A DNA stretch of 32,000 bases from Fibrobacter succinogenes subsp. succinogenes S85 (GTDB lineage Bacteria > Fibrobacterota > Fibrobacteria > Fibrobacterales > Fibrobacteraceae), in the NCBI RefSeq assembly GCF_000146505.1, contig NC_017448.1, positions 480,001-512,000 on the forward strand, read 5' to 3'. The position numbers were made by a program, and so were the translations under genes. Positions 5,918 through 30,062 of this stretch are shown piece after piece (the first letter of the stretch is position 1; each line of letters opens with the position of its first letter). A model generated the notes under the pieces. That model made no database searches, was not told where the DNA came from, and was given only the letters and a program-made list of their open reading frames with translations.

Positions 5918-6961
5918 TTATTTCTTGTCGCGGATGCGGGCGTAGAGGGTTTCAGCTTTTTCGGTGTCGCCGGCGTTCGAGAAGATATGGCCTACGTTTT
6001 CGGCACCAATGCGGCCCTGAGAATTACCGGCACGCCAAGCCTTCATGTAACATTCAAACGCTTCGTCGTAACGCTTTTGCGTAAAGTAAATTTGCCCTAA
6101 ATCAAGGTTCAAATCGGCGATGCCTTTCTTGTGGCGGAGTCCTTCTTCCAGCGTGAAAATAGCCATCCACGGGGATTCATTCTTGACATACATCTGCGCA
6201 AGATAACGGCGAGCGGAAACGTTTTCAGGGTCCATCATCACGCCGTTTTCCATTTCATTGAGAGCGAGCCGCGTAGAATCCATGCTGCGGTAGTAATACG
6301 AGAGCGTGTAATGTACGTCGGCGCCAGCAGTCGCTGTCATCTGGAGCGCATTCTTGAGCGTCTTCACCGCATATTCGTAATCGCCAAGCTTTTCATAGAC
6401 TTCGGCAAGACCATACCAAGCGTCCATGCGGTCCGGGTTTAGCGCCAGCGCACGTTCAAAATGCTTTTGCGCAAGCGTCCAATCGCTGCCCTTCATATAA
6501 CATTCAGCAAGGGCGAAATGAATGTGATCCGTTTCCGTCCCGAGTTCAATCGCACGGTTGTAGGCGACAATCGCATCGCTCGGAGATTCGGCGAGGTAGT
6601 ACAAATCGCCAAGAAGCATCCAAGCCTTCACAAAATCCGGAAGGAGTTCAACAGTGCGCTTGTAAGCAACCATCGCGACTTCTTTTTTGCCGAGCTGCAC
6701 AAGGGCGTTGCCCAAGTTGAACCACGCAAACGGCTCGTAACGGCCATCGTCAATCGCGGCACGGTAATACTTCACCGATTCCTTGTAACGCCCCTGGTCG
6801 TAAAGCTCGTTCGCCTTGAAGAAGAAATCATCCGCAGCATGCAGCGGCAGCGCAAGAAGGAATACTAAGACGAGAGACGAGAGACGAGAGACGAGAGATT
6901 TTTCTTTCGTCTTTCGTCTGTAGGAGCAAAGCTCCGTTCTATTGTCTAACCTACTTAACAA
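5918..6961 (-). CDS. tetratricopeptide (TPR) repeat protein with signal peptide (TtpD-like position in the TonB2 cluster)
   Basis: Multiple 34-aa TPR units (e.g. YDQGRYKESVKYYRAAIDD, AWFNLGNALVQLGKKEVAMVAYKRTVEL). The signal-peptide-like SLVLVFLLALPLHA|AD is reachable only from the TTG at 6961, the only ATG/GTG/TTG upstream of it in frame. Confidence 0.8.
   Translation of the reverse strand: MLSRLDNRTELCSYRRKTKEKSLVSRLSSLVLVFLLALPLHAADDFFFKANELYDQGRYKESVKYYRAAIDDGRYEPFAWFNLGNALVQLGKKEVAMVAYKRTVELLPDFVKAWMLLGDLYYLAESPSDAIVAYNRAIELGTETDHIHFALAECYMKGSDWTLAQKHFERALALNPDRMDAWYGLAEVYEKLGDYEYAVKTLKNALQMTATAGADVHYTLSYYYRSMDSTRLALNEMENGVMMDPENVSARRYLAQMYVKNESPWMAIFTLEEGLRHKKGIADLNLDLGQIYFTQKRYDEAFECYMKAWRAGNSQGRIGAENVGHIFSNAGDTEKAETLYARIRDKK
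6866..6949 (-). repeat. heptamer-palindromic element, copy A (TAGAC box, GGAGC-TTT-GCTCC hairpin, CAGACGAAAGACGAAAGA, then (TCTCTCG)x4)
   Basis: Read directly on the minus strand as TAGACAATAGAACGGAGCTTTGCTCCTACAGACGAAAGACGAAAGAAAAATCTCTCGTCTCTCGTCTCTCGTCTCTCGTCTTAG. It lies inside the 5' end of the TPR ORF. Its TAG is the tonB stop. Confidence 0.9.
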
Positions 6962-7592
6962 AACGGAACTCCTTTGTAGCTTTTTGTGCTACTGGGAAGC
7001 CGCGTAACTGCGCCGGAGAGAACTTCCACTGGCGAATAGCCTTGAGCGCTTCGATATCAAAGCCATAGCCAGCCGGGTCCTGCGTCAGCACCTGAGCCTG
7101 AGCCACGTCGCCGTTCACATCAATCACAATAAATACTTTCACGTAACCCGAGACGCCCATTTTCTTGGCGCGTTCAGGGAACTTCGGCTGGATTTCGCGC
7201 AACACTTGCGCCTGTTCATCCACTTCGCCAGCCTCGTAAATAACATTTTCCATCGAGCCTGCATCTACGGCAACGCCATCGCCAGCAGCACCGCGAGCAA
7301 GCGACAAATCCATCTGGAAATTCTGACTGCGAGATACACCCATGTGCGCCGAAACCTTGAACGTGTTCGGAGTCGCCACCGTACGGATGACCTTCTGCTT
7401 CACTTCGGGCTTTTTCTCACTCACGAGGACTTCAACTTCGGTCACTTCTTCGAGAACTTTTTCGGACTTCACGCCTTTATCGAAGAACAACACGTTGATG
7501 ACCGGGATCGCAAGGAAGAACACCGCGCCCACGACAAACGAGAGCACAAACGCCACCGGGAATCGGAAATATTTCGCACAAAAGTCAAGCAT
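6951..7592 (-). CDS. tonB: energy transducer TonB
   Basis: N-terminal TM anchor, then a TonB C-terminal domain (GYVKVFIVIDVNGDVAQAQVLTQDPAGYGFDIEALKAIRQWKFSPA). It follows exbB and exbD. Confidence 0.85.
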   Translation of the reverse strand: MLDFCAKYFRFPVAFVLSFVVGAVFFLAIPVINVLFFDKGVKSEKVLEEVTEVEVLVSEKKPEVKQKVIRTVATPNTFKVSAHMGVSRSQNFQMDLSLARGAAGDGVAVDAGSMENVIYEAGEVDEQAQVLREIQPKFPERAKKMGVSGYVKVFIVIDVNGDVAQAQVLTQDPAGYGFDIEALKAIRQWKFSPAQLRGFPVAQKATKEFRFVK

Positions 7593-7603
7593 GAGAGCGA
7601 GAG

Positions 7604-8008
7604 CTACTCCTCCTTATTCGCGGAAATGGAGACTTTTCTCACCTTCGCCAAATTACATTCATCGAGGATATCAACCACGACTCCGTTGGGAGCGTCACGG
7701 TCGCTCACGATAATCACCGGGCGGTCCGGTGCTTCGGCCATCATCTGGCGGAGCACGGTCTGCAAAGTCGAGAGGTTCACCTGCGTCTCGTTGATGTGGA
7801 TGGTCCCCTGACGGGTGACACCAATCAAAATGCTTTCCTTCGCGAGTTCCTTTGCGGTACTCGCCTTCGGCTTCGTCACATCCACGCCAGTTTCTCGCGT
7901 AAACGTCGAAGTCACGATGAAGAAGATCAAAAGGATGAACACCATATCGAGCATCGGAGAGACATCAATGCCTCCACCGCTTCTCGAACGTTTACGGATA
8001 AAACTCAT
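7604..8008 (-). CDS. exbD: biopolymer transport protein ExbD/TolR
   Basis: 134 aa with IDVSPMLDMVFILLIFFIVTSTF (the ExbD TM motif). It overlaps exbB by 4 nt (ATGA). Confidence 0.9.
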   Translation of the reverse strand: MSFIRKRSRSGGGIDVSPMLDMVFILLIFFIVTSTFTRETGVDVTKPKASTAKELAKESILIGVTRQGTIHINETQVNLSTLQTVLRQMMAEAPDRPVIIVSDRDAPNGVVVDILDECNLAKVRKVSISANKEE

Positions 8009-8637
8009 TCAACCTCCTTGGCAAAGCAACGTTCTTCGAACTTGAGCGCTTCGCCCCAGGCAAAATCACCAATAGAATCTACTCGACTTTCGAGATAGTT
8101 ATAAACGAGCATCAACGGGAACGCGACAAGCAAGCCCGCCTGCGTCGTGAGGAGCGCTTCGGAAATGCCATCGGCCAAGAGCACCGGGTTTCCAAAGCCA
8201 AATTGCTTAATCGTCTCGAACGTATGCACCATGCCAGATACCGTTCCCAGAAGTCCGAGGAGCGGAGCAATCGAAGCGCAAGTCACAATCGTCTTGAGCG
8301 ACTTGGAAAGGCTCACGTCCAGTTCGTGACGCGTCGCGAGCATCGCATTGCGTACAGCCACAGGACCATCGTTACGGTACTTCCGCACGTTTTCGACCAA
8401 AGCCAAGAAGTAGCCAAAGCGGCGCTTGCGGAGTTTTGCAAAAGCAGCCTCCTCGCCCACCGTGTCCAAATCCTTGAAGAACTTCGAAGTCGAAGTGCCC
8501 TTCAGCATAAAATAATAGCCGTATCGTTCAAACATCAAGAACCAGCCCAGCCACCCAATCAGGAATAGCGGGAGCAACACCCAGCCGCCGCGCAGCAGGA
8601 TGCTCATGGTCGCTTCGATGACGGAATACTCGTCCAT
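8005..8637 (-). CDS. exbB: MotA/TolQ/ExbB proton-channel protein
   Basis: 210 aa with three TM segments and the conserved block IAPLLGLLGTVSGMVHTF...LLADGISEALLTTQAGLLVAFP. Confidence 0.9.
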   Translation of the reverse strand: MDEYSVIEATMSILLRGGWVLLPLFLIGWLGWFLMFERYGYYFMLKGTSTSKFFKDLDTVGEEAAFAKLRKRRFGYFLALVENVRKYRNDGPVAVRNAMLATRHELDVSLSKSLKTIVTCASIAPLLGLLGTVSGMVHTFETIKQFGFGNPVLLADGISEALLTTQAGLLVAFPLMLVYNYLESRVDSIGDFAWGEALKFEERCFAKEVE

Positions 8638-10205
8638 TACTTTTCCTTAATCCAGATAGCGTTGAGGACGGCAAGGCCCGTCTTTTCCATACGGGTACGG
8701 ACAGAATCCGAGATGTTCACGAGGAGCGTGTGCAAGAGCTGGAGCGGGATAGCCACGATAAGGCCAGCTTCCGTCGTCACAAGGGCAATGGAAATACCGC
8801 CTGCCAAAAGTTTCGGGTCGCTCGTGCCGTGCATGGTGATGACATTGAAAAGTTCAATCATACCCATAACGGTACCCAAAAGACCGAGGAGCGGTGCAGT
8901 CGAGGCAAACACGGAAATCCAGCTGAGGCCCATTTCAAGCTTCGGCACTTCGCCAGCGAACAGGACTTCGAGAGACTTTTCGGCGCTGGCACGGTCCTTG
9001 AAATTCTTGCCAAGCACGGAGCGCAACACCTTGCCCACTTCACCATGAGCACTTTGGGATTCAGCCGTTGCAAGACGGAGGTCGCGATTTGCGAGAGCCT
9101 TTACCGCATTGCGTGCACCACGGCCACCAAAACCAAGCACGAGGAGCCAAACAAGGCGCACGAGGAAGATGATAAGGCCGAGGATAAAGAGCGTTGCAAT
9201 CGGGTACATCAGAATGCCACCGTTGTGGAAAAATTCAGCAAAGTCTTCTTTCCACGTGGTTTCCTGGTGGTTTGCAAGTTCACTCGAAAGTTCGGTACTG
9301 AGGAGGACATCGACCGGCACCATCACGAAAGCGGAATCGTTAGCGCCAGCAAAAGCCTTTGCCACATCCTTGCGCGTTTCGGGAGAGAGATTTTCTTGCC
9401 AGCTATAGACGCGCTTCTTTTCGCCTGCCACCGGGAGCATCAAAGCCGACGGATGGAAGCCGTTGATGTCTGTGACCTTCGCCATCTGCATAGCAAAGAG
9501 GCCGCCCAAGCGCATGCGGTCGCCTTCGGCAACCGAGCTACCGAACATGAGGTCCGCCTTTTCGGTGCGGACTTCACGCGTAAACTTCATTTCTTTCTTG
9601 GCAACGTCGAGCATCGCGCGGGCAATGCGGAGCGGGTCATCACGGTAGAGCCCCATCTCTTTCTTGACCTTATTCTGCGCTTCGACGCGATCGGCAACCT
9701 TGAACGGCACGCCCTGTTCCTGGAACTTGGCGAGCATTTCCAAGCGTTCCGGACCTGCAGCGAGCGAGAGGTATTCGGCACGTGCCTTTTCAGCCTGGAG
9801 CTTGACCTGTGCCAAGTCTTCGCGAGCCACGCGCACATCTTCGAGCAAGCGGGTACGTTCGGACATCAAGGCATCCACGCGTTCCTTGCCGAGCTGATAC
9901 TTTTCATTGAAGAGTTCACGTTCCTTGTTGAACGTTTCGCGGTCCTTCCATCGGGCGGCGACAGCCATGTCGCGCTTGCGGCGGGCTTCTTCGAGATCAG
10001 CCTTAGCGCTGTTGAGTTCGGCGCGTTTCTTGACGGCATCAACAGTCGTGTTCTGCTGAGCATTAGAAGCAGGAGCGAGAAGCAAAACTAAGACGAGAGG
10101 CGAGAGACGAGAGACGAGAGATAAACGCCTCAAAAAACCGCTACTAGAAGACACTCTTTCGTCTTTCGTCTGAAGGGGCGAAGCACCGTTCTTTCGTCTA
10201 AACAT
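8637..10205 (-). CDS. large MotA/TolQ/ExbB-family protein with a ~330 aa N-terminal periplasmic coiled-coil domain (TtpC-like)
   Basis: The C-terminus carries TAPLLGLLGTVMGMIELF...LLAGGISIALVTTEAGLIVAIP. The N-terminus has signal peptide ...LSPLVLVLLLAPASNA|QQ. The ATG at 10205 overlaps the upstream TAA (TAATG). Confidence 0.85.
   Translation of the reverse strand: MFRRKNGASPLQTKDERVSSSSGFLRRLSLVSRLSPLVLVLLLAPASNAQQNTTVDAVKKRAELNSAKADLEEARRKRDMAVAARWKDRETFNKERELFNEKYQLGKERVDALMSERTRLLEDVRVAREDLAQVKLQAEKARAEYLSLAAGPERLEMLAKFQEQGVPFKVADRVEAQNKVKKEMGLYRDDPLRIARAMLDVAKKEMKFTREVRTEKADLMFGSSVAEGDRMRLGGLFAMQMAKVTDINGFHPSALMLPVAGEKKRVYSWQENLSPETRKDVAKAFAGANDSAFVMVPVDVLLSTELSSELANHQETTWKEDFAEFFHNGGILMYPIATLFILGLIIFLVRLVWLLVLGFGGRGARNAVKALANRDLRLATAESQSAHGEVGKVLRSVLGKNFKDRASAEKSLEVLFAGEVPKLEMGLSWISVFASTAPLLGLLGTVMGMIELFNVITMHGTSDPKLLAGGISIALVTTEAGLIVAIPLQLLHTLLVNISDSVRTRMEKTGLAVLNAIWIKEK
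10088..10202 (-). repeat. heptamer-palindromic element, copy B
   Basis: Minus-strand read: TTTAGACGAAAGAACGGTGCTTCGCCCCTTCAGACGAAAGACGAAAGA, a 35-nt spacer, then TCTCTCGTCTCTCGTCTCTCGCCTCTCGTCTTAG. It starts right after the ATG of the TtpC-like gene. Confidence 0.9.
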
Positions 10206-10996
10206 TAGTTAGCCTCCTTCGGAAAAGATACTGGGATAGTCACAAGTCTTGGAGCGGTCTTGCCTTCGGCGACCTTCATCACGTCCTTGAGGACTGTGCG
10301 CATCGTGAGGTCTTCGGAGACGTTCTTCCAGGAGTAGCCGAGACCGTTACGAGTGAGGAACAAAACATCGTTACCGTCATTGCTGACGAAAATCGAGGCG
10401 ACTGCACCGTAGCGCAAATACGTTCCAGCCACGTTGCGAGCGTCCACCTGCAAAAAGCCCTTCCAAACTTCGGTGGTGTAACCCAGGCGGATGCGGTCGT
10501 AAAAGACTTCCATCGTGCGGTTCAAGGCGTCGTCCGTTTCGATTAGGCCCTTGTGCAACATGCTTGCGATTTCCAGGATGTTCTTGACTGCTTCGTCCGT
10601 GCGGTACGGGAAATCCGATTCAAAGAACGGTACGAGAGAATCGATGACCGTCGCAAGAGAATCGGCGTACTTCGTCTTGCGGTTTTCGAAATAGCGGATT
10701 GAGCCATTCGTCTTGGAGCGGGCCGCTGAAATTTTCTTGAGTTCGACCTTGAGCGAATCGATTTCGGCTTTCAAGGACTTGTTCTGGGCCGAGAGGTTCT
10801 GCACCTTTTTGCGACCGACTTCAACGAATTCGGCATGGCGCTTCTTTTCGGCTTCGTGCATAGATTTTTCGCGAGCGGTTTCGGCCTCGACCGTCTTGAT
10901 TTGGCGACGAACGCTTTCTACCGTTTCTTGGGCAACGGCAAAAACGCCAGAAAGCCCCAGACACAACAATACTTTAGGAAGGAATGAAAATTTCAT
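10205..10996 (-). CDS. DUF3450-like periplasmic coiled-coil protein (TtpB-like, first gene of the TonB2-type cluster)
   Basis: Signal peptide MKFSFLPKVLLCLGLSGVFAVAQE, then a coiled coil, then a C-terminal domain (LRYGAVASIFVSNDG...). I chose the start at 10996. The ORF track extends to 11044, and 11002 is also possible. Confidence 0.7.
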   Translation of the reverse strand: MKFSFLPKVLLCLGLSGVFAVAQETVESVRRQIKTVEAETAREKSMHEAEKKRHAEFVEVGRKKVQNLSAQNKSLKAEIDSLKVELKKISAARSKTNGSIRYFENRKTKYADSLATVIDSLVPFFESDFPYRTDEAVKNILEIASMLHKGLIETDDALNRTMEVFYDRIRLGYTTEVWKGFLQVDARNVAGTYLRYGAVASIFVSNDGNDVLFLTRNGLGYSWKNVSEDLTMRTVLKDVMKVAEGKTAPRLVTIPVSFPKEAN

Positions 10997-11060
10997 GTGC
11001 ATAAAATACAAAGAAGTGCGACCAAAATTCACGCACTGATTCAATTTTTATGTAAAAACG

Positions 11061-13760: not shown

Positions 13761-14993
13761 TTACTTTCCTGAATTCAAAATTCGTACATAACTTGCATAG
13801 CGAGCTTCAGAAATTTTGCCCGATTCAACAGCAGCACGCACAGCACAGCCCGGTTCCTTAAGGTGTTTGCAGTTGCTAAACTTGCACGTGAACAAATCAT
13901 CTTCGAAAAAACCCGGAAAAATCTTAGCAAGCGTTTCGGGTTCCATGTCCATAAGGCCAATGCTACGAATGCCCGGCGTATCGATTACGTAACCACCACC
14001 CGGGAAATCAAACAAGCTCGAAGAGGTCGTCGTATGGCGACCCTTGCCGTCGCGTTCACGAACATCTCCCGTGCGCAGTTCGGCGTGAGGAACAAGTTCA
14101 TTAATCAATGTAGACTTGCCGACACCGCTCATGCCACTAAAGACTGAGGACTTTCCGACGAGTTCATTGCGCAGAACTTCGAGGCCATCCCCACTTTTAA
14201 CGCTCACGGGAATCACCTTGTCCACGATTTTCATGAAGTCGCGGATATCGCTCGAAAGGTCCGCTTCGCCGTTCGGCAGCAAATCCATCTTGGTGAGCAC
14301 GAGCACAAACGGCAAATCGTTCAAGTTTGCGGCAAGCAAAAAGCGGTCCATGAATCCGTAGTTGAATTCCGGCTGCGTCACGCTTGCGACAATCACGACC
14401 TGGTCAATATTAGCGGCAAGCGTCTGCTGCTTGTAGAAGCTATCACGCGGGCCCGGGCGCTTGAGTTCGCTCTTTCGCGGGAGCACACGCACAACGCAAT
14501 ACTTCTGCGAACCGACGCCATCGCCTTCGTCATCTGCATCGTTCACGAGACCGAGCAAAACGCGGTCGCCCACGGCAGGAAATTCACCAAGCGTTTTGGA
14601 CGTTGTCGCACGGTACATGGCAGTAACTGTGTTAGACGAAAGACGAGAGTCGAGAGACGAGAGAGGGGTATTTTCTTTCGTCTCTCGTCTGTAGCTCGCG
14701 TCAGCGAGCGTTCTATCGTCTAACCGCACTTCGCAGGTGCGGCGGTGGACTTCGAGCACAAGGCCTTCCACACAATTTTCTTCACCGATGTTTTCAACCG
14801 GATTCTTGATACGCTTGATTTTCGCCTTTTTAAATTCGCGACTGAAACGTTCCTTGATAGGACGTTCATCAACGACTCCCGATTCCAATTCACGCATCAC
14901 GTCGATACGGCGGCTTCTGTGTTCGCGTCTTGATGTGCGAACACTCTTCAAAGGAGCTTCATTTTCGTCGGAATCAAAATCGTTATTTCGCAT
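13761..14993 (-). CDS. rsgA: ribosome small-subunit-dependent GTPase A (RsgA/YjeQ) with a basic N-terminal extension and an in-frame repeat-element insertion
   Basis: Circularly permuted GTPase motifs LVLTKMDL (NKxD-type) and FSGMSGVGKSTLINEL (G1), plus the zinc knuckle CKFSNCKHLKEPGCAV. The OB-fold strands VEGLVLEVHRRTCEV ... VTAMYRA...AVGDRVLL are split by about 30 codons. Confidence 0.9.
   Translation of the reverse strand: MRNNDFDSDENEAPLKSVRTSRREHRSRRIDVMRELESGVVDERPIKERFSREFKKAKIKRIKNPVENIGEENCVEGLVLEVHRRTCEVRLDDRTLADASYRRETKENTPLSSLDSRLSSNTVTAMYRATTSKTLGEFPAVGDRVLLGLVNDADDEGDGVGSQKYCVVRVLPRKSELKRPGPRDSFYKQQTLAANIDQVVIVASVTQPEFNYGFMDRFLLAANLNDLPFVLVLTKMDLLPNGEADLSSDIRDFMKIVDKVIPVSVKSGDGLEVLRNELVGKSSVFSGMSGVGKSTLINELVPHAELRTGDVRERDGKGRHTTTSSSLFDFPGGGYVIDTPGIRSIGLMDMEPETLAKIFPGFFEDDLFTCKFSNCKHLKEPGCAVRAAVESGKISEARYASYVRILNSGK
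14632..14722 (-). repeat. heptamer-palindromic element, copy C (inside the rsgA coding sequence)
   Basis: Minus-strand read: TTAGACGATAGAACGCTCGCTGACGCGAGCTACAGACGAGAGACGAAAGAAAATACCCCTCTCTCGTCTCTCGACTCTCGTCTTTCGTCTAA. The modular order is the same as in copies A, B and E. Confidence 0.9.
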
Positions 14994-15270: not shown

Positions 15271-15323
15271 GGTCTAAAGATAGAAATTAGTAGACGGTAG
15301 GAAGTTGGCAGTAGGAAGAAGAA
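15271..15323. repeat. variant TAGAC/GTAGGAA heptamer element
   Basis: GGTCTAAAGATAGAAATTAGTAGACGGTAGGAAGTTGGCAGTAGGAAGAAGAAAGA. It shares TAGACGGTAGGAAGT with 18044-18058 and GTTGGCAG with 20223-20230. Confidence 0.7.
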
Positions 15324-16551: not shown

Positions 16552-16639
16552 ATCCTATGCGGTCCACTTCTCCGCTTGCACCCGTATGGGTGAGCTACGG
16601 CCTTCGAGGCAAGGGAAGTATTCATTTCAAAGAGGCTTT

Positions 16640-18026: not shown

Positions 18027-18060
18027 TAGTTAGAAGTAGGAAATAGACGGTAGGAAGTAA
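18027..18060. repeat. variant GTAGGAA/TAGAC element, left arm (after the purF stop)
   Basis: TAGTTAGAAGTAGGAAATAGACGGTAGGAAGTAA. It is inverted relative to 18110-18140, which reads ACTGTCTACTTCCGACAGCCTATAGTCTACTAA. Confidence 0.65.
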
Positions 18061-18077
18061 CGCTAACGTCATAACAC

Positions 18078-18109: not shown

Positions 18110-18140
18110 CTGTCTACTTCCGACAGCCTATAGTCTACTA
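18110..18140. repeat. variant GTAGGAA/TAGAC element, right arm
   Basis: GTCTACTTCC and TAGTCTACTA are reverse complements of GGAAGTAGAC/TAGTAGAC-type boxes seen at 18031-18058 and 15288-15300. Confidence 0.6.
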
Positions 18141-18141
18141 A

Positions 18142-19062
18142 TTAAGCGTTTTCAAATGTCCAGCGGATGTGTTCATCCAAAAATTCATGGGCATCGAATG
18201 CCAAATCAAAACTGTCCTTGATTTTCTGGACGCTATAGAGCATGGGTTCATCACCCCACCCCATATCGGTTTCAACGATTTTTGATTTGCACCCAGGCTT
18301 AAGGGCAATCATCTTTTCTGCAATTTCTTTCCAGCTAATCCATTCAGAACCAAGACCGAGGAAGATTTCTTCGTTCAAATCGGATTCCAGGAGCTTCATA
18401 TAAATTTGAGCCTGCTGAGAAGCATGGATAAACTGCGTACCGTCATTCTTGATGATATTGATATCGCGGTCTTCCTTGACAGCATAAGCCATTTCAAAGA
18501 ACCTGCGGTCAGGCTGAGAGCACCCATCGGGGAACGCCGGATTGCCAAACGTATATCCCGGACGGATAATATTGCGTTTCATCTTGACTTCGGGAAACTG
18601 GCTTCCGTAACCATGGCTAAAGCCAAGCACAAAAGCCTCACCAGCCGCCTTGGTCGCCCCATAAAGGTCAATCGGCAAATTGCTCGTCATCTCGTGCATT
18701 TCGGAACGCACACGTCCCATCGCCGAGGTGCTGCTAGTATAAATAAACTTGTCACAACCCGCACGAGCGGCCATTTCCAAAAGAGCGATCGTTGCACGAG
18801 TATCGTTCATGAGCATTGCACTTGGAGTATCGCCCCAACCGAGAGCCACGTGAATGCAGGCATCACAGCCGACAAGGCCCTCGCCCATCTTTTCAAAATC
18901 CGTCAAAGCGGCCTCGACAAACGAGACGTTCGGATTAGCCCTTAAAGTCGGCACCTTGTTCGGGTGACGCGTTGCTACAACGACTTCATGCCCTCTATCC
19001 AAAAGAGCCTTGACCACATAATGACCGATAAAGCCGGTACCACCCGTTACAAATACTCGCAT
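18142..19062 (-). CDS. NAD-dependent epimerase/dehydratase family protein (extended SDR)
   Basis: MRVFVTGGTGFIGHYVVKALLDRGHEV (Rossmann GxxGxxG) and YGATKAAGE (YxxxK). I chose the start at 19062; the ORF track extends to 19095. Confidence 0.85.
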   Translation of the reverse strand: MRVFVTGGTGFIGHYVVKALLDRGHEVVVATRHPNKVPTLRANPNVSFVEAALTDFEKMGEGLVGCDACIHVALGWGDTPSAMLMNDTRATIALLEMAARAGCDKFIYTSSTSAMGRVRSEMHEMTSNLPIDLYGATKAAGEAFVLGFSHGYGSQFPEVKMKRNIIRPGYTFGNPAFPDGCSQPDRRFFEMAYAVKEDRDINIIKNDGTQFIHASQQAQIYMKLLESDLNEEIFLGLGSEWISWKEIAEKMIALKPGCKSKIVETDMGWGDEPMLYSVQKIKDSFDLAFDAHEFLDEHIRWTFENA

Positions 19063-19175
19063 AAGAACTCCTTTTTCAACACCTATCTTTTCCAATATAG
19101 ATTATGTCGGTTCAATCCGGCAAGAGTTTACGTGAAATTACTAGATTAAATCCTGAAAATTCTAGTGAGGTTTTT

Positions 19176-20210
19176 ATGTCCCGTTTACGCGTTTTGGTAT
19201 TGATGGGCGGTCCATCTACTGAACATGATGTTTCTGTCGTTAGCGGTACTGGCGTTGTGCGCGCCATGGATCCGGAAAAGTACAACATCCACCCGGTGCT
19301 CATTGACAAAGACGGTACCTGGCACTGGTCTTCCCGTGAACTTTCTCCGTACCAGAAGGCTAATTTCTCGGAAAACTATTTCCACAGCCTCGAAGGCACA
19401 GCCGCCAACAAAAAGAAGTCTCCGGCTCTTTCGGAACTTCCGTCGGCCGATATTGCATTCCTCGCCCTCCACGGCAAGTGGGGCGAAGACGGCCACATCC
19501 AGGCCATGCTCGAAAACTGGAACATCCCGTACACGGGTTGCGGCCTTTTGGCATCGGCACTAGCCATGGACAAGATTAAGTCCAAAGAAATTTACCGTGC
19601 AAACGGTATCCCGACTCCGCCTTACCGCGTGATCTGGAAGCACGACTTTACCGGTGACACGCTCGTAAGCGTTGCCGACGAACTCGGATACCCACTCGTC
19701 ATCAAGGACCCGCTGGGAGGCTCATCCATCGGCATTGGCATCGCGAAGAATCTCGACGAAGCAGGCAAGATTGCACAGGACTTGTTCAAGGATTCTAACC
19801 GTTTGCTCTGCGAAAAGTTCATCGCCGGTGGCGAGGCTAGCTGCGGCTACATCGAAGGAGAAAAGCCACTCCCGCCGACTGAAATGCGCATGACGACCCG
19901 CGAATACTTTGACTTCGAAGCGAAGTACAACGGCGAATGCCAGGAAGTCACTCCGGCTGAATTTGCACCGGAACTCACAGCACGCATCCAGGAACTTGTG
20001 AAGAACGCCCACTACGCTTTGGGCGGTGCTGGCTACAGCCGTACGGACGTCCGCATCACGAAGGATGGCGAGCTCTTTGCGATTGAAACGAACACGCTCC
20101 CGGGCATGACCCCGACATCGCTGTTGCCGCAACAGGCAGCTTGCGTTGGCATCACCTACAGCCAGCTCATTGACCTCATCATCGACAAGAGCTTGGAGAT
20201 TAAGCGTTAG
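19176..20210 (+). CDS. ddl: D-alanine--D-alanine ligase
   Basis: MSRLRVLVLMGGPSTEHDVSVVSG, FLALHGKWGEDGHIQAMLE, an ATP-grasp region, and EINTLPGMTPTSLLP-type C-terminus (ETNTLPGMTPTSLLPQ). A GTGAGG Shine-Dalgarno precedes the ATG at 19176. Confidence 0.9.
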   Translation: MSRLRVLVLMGGPSTEHDVSVVSGTGVVRAMDPEKYNIHPVLIDKDGTWHWSSRELSPYQKANFSENYFHSLEGTAANKKKSPALSELPSADIAFLALHGKWGEDGHIQAMLENWNIPYTGCGLLASALAMDKIKSKEIYRANGIPTPPYRVIWKHDFTGDTLVSVADELGYPLVIKDPLGGSSIGIGIAKNLDEAGKIAQDLFKDSNRLLCEKFIAGGEASCGYIEGEKPLPPTEMRMTTREYFDFEAKYNGECQEVTPAEFAPELTARIQELVKNAHYALGGAGYSRTDVRITKDGELFAIETNTLPGMTPTSLLPQQAACVGITYSQLIDLIIDKSLEIKR

Positions 20211-20224
20211 CGGCGTTGCCGCAG

Positions 20225-20316
20225 TTGGCAGAACTTAGACCGCTTCGCTCTTAGAACTTAGACAAGTTGATCCAAACATTTTTCTAAGCTCTAAGTTCTA
20301 AGCTCTAAGTTCTAGT
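20225..20316. repeat. sibling heptamer-palindromic element built from CTTAGAA / TCTAAG(C/T) units
   Basis: TTGGCAGAACTTAGAC-CGCTTCG-CTCTTAGAACTTAGAC, a 19-nt spacer, then TCTAAGCTCTAAGTTCTAAGCTCTAAGTTCTAG. It is preceded by the hairpin GCGGC-GTT-GCCGC (20210-20222). Confidence 0.85.
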
Positions 20317-20334
20317 AACTACGAACTAGTAACT

Positions 20335-20964
20335 ATGAACTATAACTTAATAGTAGATACATCCCGAAAGGGAATTTCGATGGCACTGAGCGCGGACTCC
20401 GTGTACGAAGAAATGGTCGATCCATCTGCCAAGGGCGAAATTCTAAGCGCAAGCTTGGATAACCTTTTGGCTAAGGTCGGCGCCACTCTCGATGACGTGA
20501 AGCGTGTCATGGTAACTGTCGGACCGGGCTCGTTCAGCGGACTGCGAACGGGCGTCGCGTTCTGCCAGGGCCTTTGCTTTAGCGGCAAGCGCAATTTGTA
20601 TGGCGTGACGACATTGCAAGCCCTCGCCTGCTTTGCCGGCGTTCCCGATGAATCTGTTGCTGTCGTGATTCGCGCACGCAATGGATTCTGGTACTTGCGT
20701 TTGAACAACGAAGAGAGCTTTATTGAAACTGCAGACGTTGTTGCACGACTCCAGGCTAGTTCCGTGAAGAACGCTGTTGTTGATGCAGCCGCGCTTACAG
20801 ACGAAGCGCTCGTCGCCGTTTTCAAGGACAAAGGAATCGCAACGACTCTCGACACCGACAAGAAGCTCAACATGTGGTCTCCGCTTTTTGATACTGTGAA
20901 ACCATCGCTCATTCAAGAAGCAAACTACATCCAGCCGTCTTACTTCGAGAAGTTGAAGGTGTAA
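20335..20964 (+). CDS. tsaB: tRNA N6-threonylcarbamoyladenosine biosynthesis protein TsaB (YeaZ)
   Basis: VTVGPGSFSGLRTGVAFCQGL matches the GPGSFTGLRIG motif. It is followed by rimI, the usual pairing. Confidence 0.8.
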   Translation: MNYNLIVDTSRKGISMALSADSVYEEMVDPSAKGEILSASLDNLLAKVGATLDDVKRVMVTVGPGSFSGLRTGVAFCQGLCFSGKRNLYGVTTLQALACFAGVPDESVAVVIRARNGFWYLRLNNEESFIETADVVARLQASSVKNAVVDAAALTDEALVAVFKDKGIATTLDTDKKLNMWSPLFDTVKPSLIQEANYIQPSYFEKLKV

Positions 20965-22455: not shown

Positions 22456-24123
22456 TTAAGCGCTTAACAGCAGCAATGCCGCAGTCAGAGGAGCGCTCCA
22501 GTTGATAGCAACTTCGTTACTGGCAAAAGAACATTGCTCGTCTGCATAAGACATGCCACGAGCCTCCCCCATGTAATGCGGTTTCCTATGCAAATCCTGG
22601 CGGTCTTCATTAATGCCACCAACGACAAGCCCAGGCACCGGTTCATCAACGCCATCGGAATGGCTAATGCGGTGATGCGGGAACTTCGGGGAACTCCAAG
22701 CAGAGCCCGTCACAAAGCTCACGTCTACAGGATTCTTGCCGTAAATAAATTCAATCTGTTCCATCGCCGCATCGCGATACTTCGAATCATTAAACCATTC
22801 ATACGCCAAATAAAGCGTCAGCGCATGGTTTGCAATATCGCCATTGCTCCCCCAGATGAACTTGCAAATTGAAAGTCCATACGGGTCTTCCTTTTGCAGA
22901 TGCAAGATTTCTTCGGCCGTGTACTTGAACGCCATACGGGCGCGTTCCGTCCACTTGCAATCCATTGTCGCAAGTGCAAACCAGGCTAGGTTCTGCGTTG
23001 ATCGCCATTGCAATCCGTATGTCGGCAGGTACGTGTCCATATCTACCGGAAGTTGACTTTCCAAACGTTCTAACAAGCCGGCAACATTTACGTCTGCAAT
23101 ACTTTCCACATTTTTCAGTTCGCGATACAGCATCGCACGAGCCCAGAAAAAGTCATCACCTAAATCCGAATCACCATAGCCGCCACTGCCTTCTGTATTG
23201 TGCGGCCAATCGACTTCAGGATTTTTTTCGGACCAAAGGTATGCGCGAACAGCGGCAAACAAGCATTTTTCTGCAAATTCGCTATCAACATTTGCATAAA
23301 CGTGGTGAGCCTGAGCTAGTGCGCCCACAAAATTCAACGTCGAAGAAGTCGACTTTCCAAGGATATAGCGCTTTTGAGAAGCATCCGATTCCGTAGGCGT
23401 CACAAAGCCATCCCAACGATAAGGAGTCACCTTGAAGAACACTCCACCATCATCATCTTGCATGCGCAAGAAAAATTCCAGTTCAAAACGGACTTCATCA
23501 AGCAAGCTTACCGGCAGTTCATACGATTCTTTAAAGTCGGCTCCGCCAACAATTGAAGACTTTTGAGAATGTACCTGCATCAGTTCACAGCCGAGCATCA
23601 AAGTCGCAACACTCACGCCGCCATTCACAATGTACTTGCCGTAATCGCCCGCATCGTACCAGCCGCCATGAGCATTCCAAAGCCCCGCGCGTTCCATCGT
23701 CGGATGGAATTCCAGCTTATCGTCCAAATGTGCCGCCGGGCGAGCCCAAATCCCCGCCAGACGCTCCGGTAATTCAACACCGCTCCGTTGGTAATAGAAC
23801 GACTTGATATTCGACTTGAGTTCACGCAAAACCCATTCGTCCGAGACTTCAAACAAATGCGACTTCGCATCAAAGTCCACCAAGGCAATCTGGTAACGCC
23901 CCGGGGTTTTGACCGCCGAAAAGTCACCCTTGAACAGAGTCTCGCCGGTGTATTCACAGCGCTGCAAGTTTTCGGCCAAACCCTCATAAACAACGCGATT
24001 TTCGCTATCTAGAATATTGAACTTGACCGACGGCAAAGAGGAGCCTTCCGAAAAGGCGACCAAAAAAGACTTTGCTCCTGAAGGAACATAACCCGGATGA
24101 CAATAATGGATTTTCGCGTTCAT
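22456..24123 (-). CDS. glycoside hydrolase family 9 endoglucanase/cellodextrinase with an N-terminal Ig-like (CelD_N) domain; no signal peptide seen
   Basis: GH9 blocks HGGWYDAGDYGKY, GDDFFWARAMLY, FPHHRISH and YADEQCSFASNEVAINW. The N-terminus MNAKIHYCHPGYVPSGAKSFLV resembles the Ig-like domain, not a leader peptide. Confidence 0.9.
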   Translation of the reverse strand: MNAKIHYCHPGYVPSGAKSFLVAFSEGSSLPSVKFNILDSENRVVYEGLAENLQRCEYTGETLFKGDFSAVKTPGRYQIALVDFDAKSHLFEVSDEWVLRELKSNIKSFYYQRSGVELPERLAGIWARPAAHLDDKLEFHPTMERAGLWNAHGGWYDAGDYGKYIVNGGVSVATLMLGCELMQVHSQKSSIVGGADFKESYELPVSLLDEVRFELEFFLRMQDDDGGVFFKVTPYRWDGFVTPTESDASQKRYILGKSTSSTLNFVGALAQAHHVYANVDSEFAEKCLFAAVRAYLWSEKNPEVDWPHNTEGSGGYGDSDLGDDFFWARAMLYRELKNVESIADVNVAGLLERLESQLPVDMDTYLPTYGLQWRSTQNLAWFALATMDCKWTERARMAFKYTAEEILHLQKEDPYGLSICKFIWGSNGDIANHALTLYLAYEWFNDSKYRDAAMEQIEFIYGKNPVDVSFVTGSAWSSPKFPHHRISHSDGVDEPVPGLVVGGINEDRQDLHRKPHYMGEARGMSYADEQCSFASNEVAINWSAPLTAALLLLSA

Positions 24124-24231
24124 ACCCTAAGAATAACTTTTTTCGGACAAAGACGGAAAACAAATCGCGACAGACATGTTTACCACAGGGAACATAACAT
24201 TTTTATCACAATTATATTTAGATTTTATACT

Positions 24232-26571
24232 ATGAAAAAGCCACTCAAAATCACCCTCATTGTATTAGGATCTTTGATCCTCCTCTACTTCGTCACACTT
24301 CTCGTAGCGCCCAAGATTGCCCGTAGCTACATCGAAGAGCACTCCAAGGAAATGATTGGCCGAAGCATCACCATCAAGAACATCAGCCTGAACCCGTTTA
24401 CCTACGTCTTGGACGTAGATACGCTCGCGGTCATGGAAGCGGACGACAAGACCCGCTTTGTCGCGTTCGACAAGTTCAGCATGAACATCAACCCGTTAAA
24501 GCTCTTCACGAGAACGCTTGACATCAGCGACATCTACATGAAGGCCCTCTATGTTCGCACCACGCAGCACGGAGAACGCTTCAACTTCTCCGACATTCTA
24601 GACTTCCTCGCCCAAAAGGACAGCATCTATTATGCCGAGCACCCCGAAGAAAAGAAGGTCGAATCGGACAGCAGCAAGAGCGCTGCCGAAATCGCCGCCG
24701 GGCTCCCCGTCAAGCTCAGCCTGAGAAACATTGTATTCGACAAGGGCAACATCATCTACCAGGATACAAAAGTCGGCTCCAAGTTCCACCTCAAGGACTT
24801 TTCCATCAACATCCCGGCCATTTATCTCGAAGACAACTCGACCGGCGTCGACGTGAGCCTCAAGTTTGCAGACGGCGGTGACCTGAACGTGAAGGTCGAT
24901 GCCAACATGGCCACCTACGACTTCAACATTTTCCTGAACCTGAATAGATTTGCACTCTCCTGCATCAAGCCGTACCTGAACGATTCCATCAACTACAAGG
25001 ATTTTGCGGGTTACCTCTCGGCTCAAATCTCCATCAGCGGTAACATCAACAGCATCCTCGCCTCCAATGTCAAGGGCAAGGTCTCGCTCGACAAGATTGA
25101 CCTCACCGAAGTCAGCGGAAGCAAGATGGGCGCAGAAAACGTCACCGTCGGAATCAACAAGGCAAACCTCGTCGACAACGAATACCTCATCGACTCCGTC
25201 ATCGTAGATGGTGCCTTCGCCCACATCGACCTGTACAAGGACGGCAAGACAAACATTGACGTACTCCTCACCCCGAAGAACAAGGCCGGAAGCGTGACGG
25301 ATACAACCGCCGCCGATTCTACGCAGGTAGAACCGGTTGCAGAAGCTGCAAAGCAAGAACCCGCAGACACGACGAAGGTCGTCGCTGATTCGACTAGCGC
25401 AACAACCACAGCAGAAAAGCCCGCCGCCGCAAAGAAGCTCAAGGCGAAGATTAACAAGCTCCTCGTCAAGAACACTTACATCACCATCACCGATCACACC
25501 ATTATCCGTCCGTTCAACTACAAGGTGAGCGCCATTACCGTTACCGGCCAGAACATCAACTACGACACGCCTTGCAACGTGAACGTTTCTGCCGCATTCC
25601 CCGAAGGTGGCAGTCTCTCGCTCAAATACCACGGAGCCCTCAGCAACCTGAACACGATGGACATCTACATCAGCGTGAAAAACCTCGTGCTCAAGCACTT
25701 CTCGAACTACTCGTTGCACTACACAGCCTACCCGCTCAAGGCAGGCACCCTCGCCTTCGCCAGCGAAAACAAGATTGTCGACCGCAACCTCGACAGCAAG
25801 AACACCATCGACATTTACAACATCACCGTCGGGAACAAGGTGGACGACATTGATCCGGAATACACAGTCCCGATGAAGATCGGTCTCTATATCTTGAAGG
25901 ACAAGGACGACAAGATTCAGTTCGACGTGCCGGTCAAAGGTAACCTGGACGACCCGGAATTCTCTTACGGCAAAATCATCTGGAAGACAGTCGTGAACCT
26001 TCTCGTAAAGGTCGCCATTTCGCCGTTCAGACTCGTCGGGAACCTCGCCATGGCAGGCGCCAACGCTCTCGGCTTTGACCTCGGCAAGAACAACGAAGTG
26101 CTAATTGATGCCAACACCGAAACGTTCACCAGCGAACAATACGCCAAGGCCATCAAAATGACCGAAATGCTCCAGAAGGATCCGAAGTTAATGCTGACAT
26201 TCACGCAATACTACAATCCGAGAAAGACAGCCAAGGAATACAAGGTCAAGCAGCTCAAAATTGATTTCTACAAACAAAAGAATAATAAGACTGAACTGAA
26301 CGAACTTGACTACAGAGCCATTGAAGAAATCAAGGAAAAAGACAAGGAGTTCCAGGCTTACGTCAAGGAACATTCCGCTGAAATTGACAAGAACTACATG
26401 ATGAAGGTTCTCCCGCAAATGGCAACAAAGCGCAACAACGACCTTCTCAAGGTCTTGCGCGCACAGCCGGGTGTCACGAAAAAGAACCTCAAGGTCATCA
26501 CTGCTCCGAGAGACGCACTCCGCGGCTACAAAGACAAACCGATGTATAAAGTTGACGTAGACGTACAATAA
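24232..26571 (+). CDS. DUF748 / AsmA-like large envelope protein
   Basis: N-terminal anchor MKKPLKITLIVLGSLILLYFV and a long beta-rich repeat body. The C-terminal block PMKIGLYILKDKDDKIQFDVPVKGNLDDPEFSYGKII is typical of DUF748. I chose the start at 24232 to avoid overlapping the GH9 gene. Confidence 0.7.
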   Translation: MKKPLKITLIVLGSLILLYFVTLLVAPKIARSYIEEHSKEMIGRSITIKNISLNPFTYVLDVDTLAVMEADDKTRFVAFDKFSMNINPLKLFTRTLDISDIYMKALYVRTTQHGERFNFSDILDFLAQKDSIYYAEHPEEKKVESDSSKSAAEIAAGLPVKLSLRNIVFDKGNIIYQDTKVGSKFHLKDFSINIPAIYLEDNSTGVDVSLKFADGGDLNVKVDANMATYDFNIFLNLNRFALSCIKPYLNDSINYKDFAGYLSAQISISGNINSILASNVKGKVSLDKIDLTEVSGSKMGAENVTVGINKANLVDNEYLIDSVIVDGAFAHIDLYKDGKTNIDVLLTPKNKAGSVTDTTAADSTQVEPVAEAAKQEPADTTKVVADSTSATTTAEKPAAAKKLKAKINKLLVKNTYITITDHTIIRPFNYKVSAITVTGQNINYDTPCNVNVSAAFPEGGSLSLKYHGALSNLNTMDIYISVKNLVLKHFSNYSLHYTAYPLKAGTLAFASENKIVDRNLDSKNTIDIYNITVGNKVDDIDPEYTVPMKIGLYILKDKDDKIQFDVPVKGNLDDPEFSYGKIIWKTVVNLLVKVAISPFRLVGNLAMAGANALGFDLGKNNEVLIDANTETFTSEQYAKAIKMTEMLQKDPKLMLTFTQYYNPRKTAKEYKVKQLKIDFYKQKNNKTELNELDYRAIEEIKEKDKEFQAYVKEHSAEIDKNYMMKVLPQMATKRNNDLLKVLRAQPGVTKKNLKVITAPRDALRGYKDKPMYKVDVDVQ

Positions 26572-26614
26572 TAGACGAGAGAACGCCGCTCTGCGGCTAC
26601 AGACGAAAGACGAA
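26572..26614 (+). repeat. heptamer-palindromic element, copy D (left half only)
   Basis: TAA|TAGACGAGAGAACGCCGCTCTGCGGCTACAGACGAAAGACGAAA. It has box 1, the GC hairpin and box 2, but no TCTTTCG arm. A terminator hairpin follows instead. Confidence 0.8.
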
Positions 26615-26620
26615 AAAAAA

Positions 26621-26646
26621 GGCATCGCTGAGCGATGTCCTTTTTT
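26621..26646. terminator. intrinsic terminator between convergent DUF748 (+) and nucleotidyltransferase (-) genes
   Basis: GGCATCGC-TGA-GCGATGTCC hairpin with an A8 run before it and a T6 run after it. Confidence 0.65.
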
Positions 26647-26696
26647 AAATGCGGATCAAGCGTGCCGCGCATTCCTGCGCTACACTATTTCAAAAA

Positions 26697-28292: not shown

Positions 28293-30062
<1,770 letters not shown>

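Follow-up and report, generated by a model that had tools for sequence, protein, structure and literature searches.

We analysed a stretch of 32,000 nucleotides (nt) of DNA from Fibrobacter succinogenes subsp. succinogenes S85 (NC_017448.1, positions 480,001 to 512,000 of the forward strand; hereafter the window), in which the gene for a TtpC-like ExbB paralog begins with a copy of a palindromic heptamer repeat, called copy B. Very probably, a stop-codon-adjacent repeat has here invaded, and in part taken over, a signal peptide that already existed, and is translated with the frame preserved. Copy B belongs to a modular palindromic repeat family found throughout the Fibrobacteraceae, the left module of which usually lies a few bases past the stop codon of a co-oriented gene. 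Since the stop codon of the upstream, ttpB-like gene overlaps the start codon of the ttpC-like gene (TAATG), this usual place falls just inside the signal-peptide codons of ttpC.

Ribosomes ending at the ttpB TAA would restart at the overlapping ATG and read through the element, because its heptamer arms are stop-free, its terminal TAA has been lost and its TAG is out of frame. The product would be a 49-residue leader with a basic extension of the n-region (+6) and with SLVSRLSPLVL joined to the flank-encoded VLLLAPASNA as its core. It would be cleaved at the flank-encoded S-N-A and removed upon export of the periplasmic N-terminal domain. The element would have replaced the n-region and part of the core of an earlier plain signal peptide, rather than having created export. 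The tonB-TPR junction of the same operon (copy A) would provide an independent parallel, and in relatives such junctions would also have received other modules and other repeat families, selection retaining only the stop-free, frame-preserving variants.

The ttpC-like gene and the anatomy of copy B

The host gene is the open reading frame (ORF) 8637..10205 on the minus strand, whose 522-residue product matches WP_012819887.1 (ACX73657.1, F. succinogenes S85) exactly. Along positions 5918-11044, Pfam domains give the operon order DUF3450, long ExbB, ExbB, ExbD, TonB and TPR, which agrees with the order ttpB(DUF3450)-ttpC-exbB-exbD-tonB-ttpD(TPR) of the TonB2 cluster of Vibrio vulnificus (PMC6957404). 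The TPR ORF (5918..6961, minus strand) corresponds to WP_012819883.1, and the rsgA ORF of the window to WP_012819893.1. In the ttpC-like protein, PF01618 (MotA_ExbB) covers residues 398-507, and the N-terminal domain gives a weak DUF3450-like match (E = 0.0046). Besides the leader, hydropathy places transmembrane (TM) segments at residues ~339-357, 430-457 and 473-498, and a positively charged loop follows TM1. The predicted architecture and the gene order justify, in our view, the label 'TtpC-like'. Given the positive loop after TM1, the N-terminal domain (residues ~50-330) is predicted to be periplasmic, and a leader would therefore be needed.

Read along the minus strand, the junction consists of the Shine-Dalgarno (SD) sequence GAAGGAGG, ctaac, the TAA overlapping the ATG, a single T and copy B. 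Public annotations of S85 (WP_012819887.1) take the ATG at 10203-10205 as the start. The features of the gene, the junction and the leader are as follows:

8637..10205, minus strand: ttpC-like long ExbB paralog, with leader, predicted periplasmic domain of ~290 residues and three MotA/ExbB-type TM helices
10213-10220, minus strand: SD sequence GAAGGAGG, 7 nt ahead of the ATG and still within the 3' end of the DUF3450/ttpB-like gene
10203..10207, minus strand: TAATG, in which the ttpB-like stop TAA (10205-10207) overlaps the ttpC-like ATG (10203-10205)
10155-10201, minus strand: left module of copy B, made of distal arm TTAGACGAAAGAAC, hairpin GGTGCTTCGCCCC and proximal arm TTCAGACGAAAGACGAAAGA
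10122-10154, minus strand: variable spacer or loop of copy B, encoding VSSSSGFLRRL
10088-10121, minus strand: right arm of copy B, TCTCTCG TCTCTCG TCTCTCG CCTCTCG TCTTAG, complementary to the left arms
10059-10087, minus strand: remainder of the leader outside the element, (V)LLLAPASNA, which completes the h-region and supplies the c-region and, after A49, the predicted cleavage site

Copy B is 114 nt long (10088-10201), begins one base (T) past the ATG and is read in its only open frame; the N-terminus of the ORF translates as MFRRKNGASPLQTKDERVSSSSGFLRRLSLVSRLSPLVLVLLLAPASNA|QQ. The left module encodes residues 2-17 (FRRKNGASPLQTKDER) and contains a 13-nt GC hairpin (10175-10187) with one mismatch, and the right arm encodes S29-L39 (SLVSRLSPLVL). 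Between them, the spacer holds two alternative in-frame start codons, GTG (codon 18) and TTG (codon 25). At the end of the element, the canonical TCGTCTAA is replaced by TCGTCTTAG, as it is in copy A; the GTC-TAA stop in the used frame is gone, and the TAG of the TCTTAG end is out of frame. The heptamer arms are stop-free in all frames of both strands, and (TCTCTCG)3 encodes SLVSRLS in every frame. The predicted cleavage falls between 10059 and 10058, outside copy B. The VLLLAPASNA stretch is homologous to the post-arm sequence of a related locus (L130), and A-x-A|QQ followed by ..DAVKKRAELNSAKADLEEA is conserved among orthologs.

An earlier note on this DNA had placed copy B next to an ATG that overlaps the upstream stop codon and had given the leader as MFRRKNGASPLQTKDERVSSSSGFLRRLSLVSRLSPLVLVLLLAPASNA|QQ. 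The ATG at 10203-10205 is borne out, with a single T between it and the element, and the translation of ORF 8637..10205 agrees with this reading of the leader. The note had also stated that the arm is in the same frame as in the TPR gene and the left arm in a different one. The left module is indeed read as FRRKNG..LQTKDER in the ttpC-like gene and as LDNRTELCSYRRKTKE in the TPR gene, and the right arm reads SLVSRLS(S/P)LVLV in both; since a heptamer array yields the same cyclic peptide in any frame, 'same frame' means only the same phase relative to the arm end.

An open frame at the ttpB-ttpC junction

We fetched 80 further loci from metagenomes and scored every junction in which the end of ttpB and the mature part of ttpC were both present. 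In all 80 of 80 junctions, an ATG is found at -5..+4 of the ttpB stop, in frame with the conserved mature TtpC and free of stop codons up to it. Among them are 70 distinct leader DNAs, which come in 33 lengths between 69 and 297 nt. Where the leader exceeds 100 nt (n = 45), one of the other two frames is open in 0/45 cases and the remaining one in 6/45. In nearly all Fibrobacter-clade junctions of these 80 loci, the start is preceded by the SD motif (c/t)(g/a)AAGGAGG; the remotest relatives have weaker variants. Whether a locus lacks the element or has a stub, a left module only, an arm only, a full element or other modules, its SD and ATG are the same, as illustrated by what follows the ATG in these loci:

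L001: nothing extra; leader MSFRNFTAFVFAASLVALTPTATHA
L129: 12-nt element stub; leader MFRRKTLLPLLIAAFAVFAPASFA
L126: left module only
L124 and L125: 1.5 or 4 heptamers only
The window, L128 and L005: full element
L127: full element and a further insert
L002, L130 and L131: stub or left module, with other repeat modules

Within one 90%-identity cluster, the leaders go from MSFRNF... (no element) through MFRRKTLLPLL... (12-nt stub giving FRRK) up to leaders of 70 residues. Leader length inside a single such protein cluster ranges from 24 to ~95 residues. In S85 ttpC, no usable start lies past the element, the sole candidate, TTG41, giving MLLAPASNA. Because the frame is open in 80/80 junctions, we infer that the inserts are translated, or at least selected as translatable, from the coupled ATG; we see no other way to explain these frames.

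It is unlikely that ttpC translation starts inside the element, at GTG18 or TTG25, with the left module an untranslated intercistronic segment and the arm alone coding. The leader from TTG25 (MRRLSLVSRLSPLVLVLLLAPASNA) would be canonical, with 25 residues and an n-region of +3, and, in a second TPR gene (L043, L055, L079) and a lipoprotein gene (L037), the spacer contains ATG codons ahead of the arm. Moreover, a long palindrome right behind the ATG should impede de novo initiation. However, TTG25 and GTG18 are devoid of SD-like sequences, whereas ATG1 has a strong SD and the TAATG coupling. An untranslated left module would also give no reason for the ATG1 frame to be open, yet this frame is open at 80/80 junctions; among these are 14 leaders with a full left module and the leader of L126, which has the left module only and no internal start. 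Even with an internal start, the arm would still encode part of the leader, and the core of the finding would be unaffected.

Other repeat modules are also translated at this junction in relatives (L131-L203, P0002-P0134). They are of at least three kinds, some nested in the AGACGAA element. One is GTCATCCTGAGCG..GAAGGATC, read as 'CHPERSAKR.EGS'; another is GGGGAATGCCTTCCCC.., read as 'GE.LPLARTS..SSRGSNAAPATPRF'; and GAAATGT or GGAATTN heptamers are translated as well ('MKCEMWNV', 'KIGIRNSEF').

Composition and ancestry of the leader

Copy B encodes residues 2-39 of the 49-residue leader, covering the charged n-region and six residues at the beginning of the uncharged stretch; the last 10 residues (VLLLAPASNA), including the cleavage site, come from the flank. 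The predicted leader has the features of Sec signal peptides. The net charge of its n-region is +6 from ATG1 and +3 from GTG18 or TTG25, the charges being element-encoded. Its uncharged run LSPLVLVLLLAPASNA has 16 residues and a best 10-residue Kyte-Doolittle value of 2.94, and small residues occupy -3/-1 of the predicted signal peptidase I site (S-N-A|QQ), with an A-x-A-like site at the same place in orthologs. Within the uncharged run, LSPLVL is contributed by the element and VLLLA by the flank; the five hydrophobic residues of the flank cannot form a core alone, and the arm is therefore needed.

All orthologs retain a hydrophobic segment and A-x-A|QQ. Relatives at 51-59% identity have plain leaders of 23-26 residues directly after the coupled ATG. 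Because these distant relatives have plain signal peptides after the same coupled ATG, we take the plain signal peptide to be the ancestral state and the element to have invaded an existing leader. Arm-encoded leader cores are found elsewhere, in the second TPR gene, in a lipoprotein with an LAAC lipobox (LAAC|S) and in L076.

Copies in the window and the tonB-TPR junction

The pattern AGACGARAGACGARAGA, with <=2 mismatches, has 17 matches in the window, against 0.02 expected. They group into five element copies, and 4/5 of these begin 0-4 nt past a stop codon:

6865-6949, minus strand: copy A, at the 5' end of the TPR (ttpD-like) gene 5918..6961, 2 nt past the tonB TAG
10088-10201, minus strand: copy B, at the 5' end of the ttpC-like gene
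14632-14723, minus strand: copy C, in frame within rsgA (13761..14993)
26572-26617, plus strand: copy D, left module only, 0 nt past the TAA of an 824-residue ORF (24097..26571)
28293-28398, plus strand: copy E, a full element that starts 0 nt past the groES TAA and fills the groES-groEL spacer

Copy C falls within RsgA's N-terminal part, the OB-fold (DDRTLADASYRRETKENTPLSSLDSRLSSN). At this rsgA site, other species (L002, L091, L114) have inserts with other hairpins and lengths, the ORF always being kept; the RsgA protein of L002, with an insertion at this site, has 470 residues. Directly after the left module of copy D, there is a terminator-like hairpin with a T run (26572-26647 region, plus strand). 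Copy E ends 30 nt before the groEL ATG, and its predicted fold has a free energy of -38.4 kcal/mol (z = -5.7).

The TPR gene starts at a TTG (6959-6961) located 8 nt before the tonB stop, with an SD (AAGGAG) 7 nt upstream. In 42/42 loci, with gaps of 46-274 nt, the frame of this TTG runs without a stop into the mature protein. The shortest TPR leaders are plain, e.g. M-LTRLFALALLFAIPLFA|AEDYF, and no other canonical start was found upstream of the hydrophobic core in the S85 TPR gene.

The heptamer unit is not a multiple of three, and the tract might be proposed as a slipped-strand phase-variation switch for TonB2-type genes. The 4.4 tandem heptamers within the ORF and the differing heptamer numbers among relatives would fit such a switch, but the arrays are short (<=5 units). 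Out-of-frame alleles amount to 0/80 at the ttpC and 0/42 at the TPR junctions, which come from many genomes and metagenomes; on these counts we rejected this very improbable role.

That the TPR and ttpC leaders resemble each other through a recent local duplication or gene conversion in the operon is scarcely credible. The ~12 nt past the arm are similar in the two genes (TCTTAGTATTCCTTCTTGC vs TCTTAGTTTTGCTTCTCGC), and both elements end with the non-canonical TCTTAG. Copies A and B nevertheless differ in their hairpins (GGAGCTTTGCTCC vs GGTGCTTCGCCCC), their distal arms (TTAGACAATAGAAC vs TTAGACGAAAGAAC) and their spacers (4 vs 33 nt). In addition, three further copies lie in the window and at least ~100 in other genomes, and both sites are filled in distant species with yet other hairpins (L005). 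The differences between the two copies, together with the dispersal of the family, contradict the duplication of one leader, which we rejected; for the same reasons, copies A and B appear as separate members of a dispersed family.

Several proposals of the earlier note can be judged on these data. A leader is required, as it had argued, in agreement with the positive loop after TM1 and with the hydrophobic segment and A-x-A|QQ kept by orthologs. Translation from the coupled ATG is supported by the conserved SD and ATG and by the 80/80 open frames. The comparison that it had suggested with orthologs lacking the element yields the plain leaders of 23-26 residues after the same coupled ATG, and the local duplication that it had named as a possible refutation is ruled out by the differing hairpins, distal arms and spacers. 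The claim that the element encodes the signal peptide holds for the n-region and LSPLVL, but VLLLAPASNA and the cleavage site belong to the flank. Similarly, independent recruitment as an export signal stands insofar as two separate copies of the family supply leader parts; since the plain signal peptide appears ancestral, invasion is the better word.

A modular repeat family of the Fibrobacteraceae

In the direction of transcription, the family plan is (T)TAGACGARAGAAC, a GC stem of 5 bp closed by a loop of 3-5 nt, CTACAGACGARAGACGAAAGA, a spacer, and (TCTCTCG)n ending with TCGTCTAA. The predicted fold is three-way: the last heptamers are paired with the distal left arm and the first ones with the proximal arm, and the small hairpin branches off. 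Predicted free energies are between -31 and -38 kcal/mol, with z = -2.6 to -5.7 for copies A, C, D and E. At gathering thresholds, Rfam matched only Fibro-purF (16562-16636) in the window, and permissive Rfam scans of copies B and E gave only chance matches to microRNA-precursor hairpins, far below threshold.

The family census consisted of one exact-pattern scan of species-representative genomes, which gave at least 120 loci; copy numbers and species range are lower bounds, and the counts below refer to the matches listed. Among these, ~100 of the at least 120 loci come from roughly 40 Fibrobacter, Fibrobacteraceae and Hallerella genomes, and the remaining loci are simple tandem AGACGAA arrays in unrelated phyla. 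At least 102 left-module matches were obtained from the window and about 85 loci of about 40 Fibrobacteraceae genomes, and 99 were scored for context.

The left boundary is sharp at (T)TAGACGA, and the right end is TCGTCTAA. [quoted passage not shown] The structure is modular, or mosaic. A right arm is present within 170 nt of only 34 of the 102 left modules, many of which are followed by other repeat modules, and both solo arms and solo left modules occur at the ttpC site in relatives. Spacers vary from 4 to about 120 nt and often contain other repeat modules.

This modularity also bears on whether the heptamer tract belongs to the mobile unit at all. We consider it rather unlikely that the tract grew in place, or came as a separate module, and that the left module was added independently. 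The scarcity of arms near left modules (34/102) would fit this scenario, as would the ttpC sites with 1.5 heptamers (L124, MKFSSLVLV) or 4 heptamers (L125) and no left module, the left module without an arm in L126, and the close relatives L125 and L128, which differ solely by the left module and spacer. However, complete left-spacer-arm palindromes occupy many unrelated intergenic sites (groES-groEL; L017, L018, L032, L082, L099), where the arms are complementary and the ends inverted (TTAGACGA...TCGTCTAA). Besides, the arm sequence in leaders matches the family consensus exactly and is not a drifted codon repeat, and internal deletions would explain the partial forms equally well.

The 5-bp stem is 97.4% paired in 54 distinct module copies, with 65 double-sided changes. 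Its covariation score is 0.643 vs 0.122 in shuffles; 0/500 shuffles reach the observed value, and sliding the partner gives <=0.09. CTAC is conserved at >=90% at the 3' foot of the hairpin, which corresponds to GTAG directly preceding the hairpin on the opposite strand. The stem variants GGACC-TTC-GGTCC, GGCGC-AAA-GCGCC and GCCAC-TGC-GTGGC recur at unrelated loci of different species, and different stems are found at orthologous sites of different species. The recurrence of discrete stems suggests re-insertion or gene conversion rather than simple vertical decay.

Copies were scorable for stop adjacency when their nearest upstream neighbour was a co-oriented ORF of at least 120 codons. Thirty-eight of the 46 scorable copies begin -3..+4 nt from the upstream stop codon, with 12 using their own TAG as the stop, and this position puts the hairpin 10-17 nt after the stop. 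The next ORF downstream is much farther off (median 83 nt). Stop adjacency therefore belongs to the left module itself, and we rejected the idea that it merely reflects tiny gaps in operons. As for context, 57 of the 99 scored copies are intergenic, 23 are open into a downstream ORF of at least 100 codons, 13 are sense-internal, four antisense-internal and two at 3' ends. The 23 copies classified as 5' coding are an upper bound, as some precede a clear ATG (ackA in L017; L048, L066). In total, 38/99 copies lie in the sense orientation within long ORFs, unlike the extragenic repetitive extragenic palindromes (REPs) and their mosaic assemblies, the BIMEs.

We regard as possible, though tentative, the reading that the left module is primarily a REP-like structure at the 3' end of the upstream gene, acting on terminating ribosomes, coupling or mRNA fate, with ttpC translation as a tolerated side effect; this would be compatible with the invasion of a signal peptide. 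The stop adjacency (38/46) with its asymmetric flanks, the strong stem covariation with stems differing at orthologous sites, and the consistent sense orientation (38 sense vs 4 antisense among the ORF-internal copies) all point in this direction, as do the GTAG directly beside the hairpin on the opposite strand, as in REPs, and the mosaic combination with other modules, as in BIMEs. REPs of E. coli located ~15 nt or less from a stop codon reportedly lower the expression of the upstream gene via ribosome stalling and tmRNA. On the other hand, no Rfam family matches. The offset to the stop is variable, about one-third of the copies lie inside ORFs, far from stops, and the hairpin of copy B is imperfect. 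A tblastn search for RAYT or IS200 TnpA in ~1 Mb of fetched flanks gave no match, a weak test limited to these flanks.

A number of points weigh against the interpretation of copy B as a mobile element that is translated as part of a signal peptide. The start of translation, the export and the cleavage of the 49-residue leader are all predictions. Both GTG18 and TTG25 are inside the element, and the latter gives a textbook 25-residue leader, although neither has a good SD. The hairpin of copy B carries a mismatch, CTAC is changed to CTTC, and the predicted RNA fold of this copy is no more stable than those of shuffles (z = -0.16); an RNA or DNA function of this copy may be decaying. As the modules also occur separately, the 'one element' may be two or more independently evolving units. 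The ORF calls of the census are stop-to-stop heuristics, not curated genes. Mobility is suggested by dispersal and presence/absence polymorphism only, and no clear target-site duplication is seen between the filled (L002) and empty (window, L001) exbD-tonB sites, a comparison that is not clean. The TA at the element ends can be read as a duplication or as part of the repeat.

Comparison with known repeats

Rickettsia RPEs are palindromes found both in intergenic regions and in frame within conserved protein genes, whose ORF is kept (Ogata et al. 2000, via PMC10969869 and PMC2229807). RPEs resemble the Fibrobacter family in being ~100-150-nt palindromes with intergenic and in-frame genic copies, here in rsgA, ttpC and ttpD, with 13 sense-internal copies among the matches listed. 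The Fibrobacter family differs by its sequence, for which no relatedness to RPEs is expected, its phylum, its heptamer arms, its covarying hairpin and its separable modules. It also differs by its strong preference for positions just past stop codons and its use mainly at 5' ends, in leaders. In Yersinia and other enterobacteria, MITEs (YPAL/RU-2 and RU-1/ERIC, respectively) are fused in frame to ORFs, and in YPO1552 of Yersinia a MITE is predicted to form part of a signal peptide (Delihas 2007/2008; PMC2759123, PMC2229807). The latter case embodies the same idea as the leader of copy B, but it is a single predicted new ORF. In contrast, the Fibrobacter repeats occur in leaders of conserved TonB2-system genes, with 80/80 and 42/42 open frames and a turnover of many modules at one site.

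With REPs and BIMEs, which are associated with RAYT in Enterobacteria and Pseudomonas, the family shares a short GC hairpin, compensatory variation, GTAG, many copies, a mosaic organization and proximity to stop codons. REPs are extragenic by definition and without a counterpart of the heptamer arms, whereas one-third of the listed Fibrobacter copies are in ORFs and no RAYT was found in the ~1 Mb of flanks; we thus treat the REP resemblance as a lead, not as membership. The Correia/NEMIS elements of Neisseria are, similarly, MITEs with TA-starting terminal inverted repeats and long hairpins, and are sometimes fused to ORFs; Correia elements are co-transcribed with the genes beside them. Unlike the Fibrobacter family, they have a demonstrated TA duplication and RNase III processing, and they are without heptamer periodicity or a comparable reported stop adjacency. 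Finally, the short tandemly repeated repetitive sequences (STRRs) of cyanobacteria are dispersed, simple tandem heptanucleotide arrays. Dispersed tandem heptamers are common to both, and our pattern scan matched AGACGAA-type arrays in Microcoleus (L045, L100). We know of no STRRs that are palindromes with a conserved hairpin, that sit at stop codons or that encode leaders.

Our literature searches found no description of the Fibrobacter repeats. The earlier note had stated that it knew of no description of such recruitment; this is apt for the family, which is apparently undescribed, but the MITE-encoded part of a signal peptide in Yersinia YPO1552 and the in-frame RPEs have been published. 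Its term 'element' likewise needs qualification: the family is dispersed, but modular, with an arm at 34 of the 102 listed left modules. The concept of in-frame or leader-forming palindromic repeats is therefore not new. What appears to be new is the family itself, the design combining heptamer arms and a covarying hairpin, the stop adjacency, and the inserts kept translatable in two TonB-system leaders.

Other repeats at related sites

The exbD-tonB spacer of S85 (7593-7603, minus strand; 11 nt) reads CTCTCGCTCTC and resembles a heptamer remnant; the 'empty' site is thus not blank. At the same site of L002 (L002:8649-8852), a ~200-nt composite element is made of a left module, a GGGGAATGCC... 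module and a right arm, and ends 3-4 nt before the tonB ATG. This is one of several full elements that span the whole gap between stop and ATG (L002:8649-8852, L007:3416-3519, L038, L051, L070), leaving 0-4 nt after the stop and 2-3 nt before the ATG. Sometimes such an element is directly preceded by an SD-like motif, and the palindrome, once folded, could bring this motif close to the start codon.

A second repeat family is present in the window at 20208-20345 (plus strand). After the TAG stop of ORF 19104..20210 come a GC hairpin (CGGCGTTGCCG), heptamers of the AGAACTT type, a loop, (TTCTAAG/CTCTAAG)x4, TAGTAAC-type heptamers and the next gene, which is the same ground plan. There are also TAGGAAG/TAGACGG-type heptamer arrays at 15286-15320, 18040-18062 and 18113-18143, inverted and ~2.8 kb apart, that bracket the region of the Fibro-purF riboswitch (16562-16636). 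In the relative L002, the TPR leader owes its hydrophobic core to (CTTCCTA)n.

Implications

The comparative support for translated repeat DNA is unusually clean: at two junctions of one operon, dozens of different repeat-derived inserts of 0 to ~230 nt all keep the frame of a conserved coupled start. Leaders of 40-100 residues will be handled poorly by gene callers and by predictors of signal peptides, and the hypervariable junctions could be used as strain markers. The family is found in a major rumen cellulose degrader, and its stop adjacency and covarying hairpin suggest a function or a targeting linked to translation termination. It seems that signal peptides of bacteria can take up mobile or repetitive DNA and be partly rebuilt from it, here in a conserved energy-transduction system.

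With due reserve, we offer as a working possibility that the Fibrobacteraceae have a system of several heptamer-palindrome families targeted to, or selected at, the first bases after stop codons. They would be built on one plan, in which a stop codon and a small GC hairpin are combined with stop-free heptamer arms and their complementary arm. The hairpin would act in a REP-like manner on terminating or re-initiating ribosomes, and the arms, open in every frame, would be able to live in overlapping junctions and to rebuild the leaders of exported proteins. If this is true, the repeats would be both a regulatory device at the level of the operon and a generator of signal-peptide diversity.

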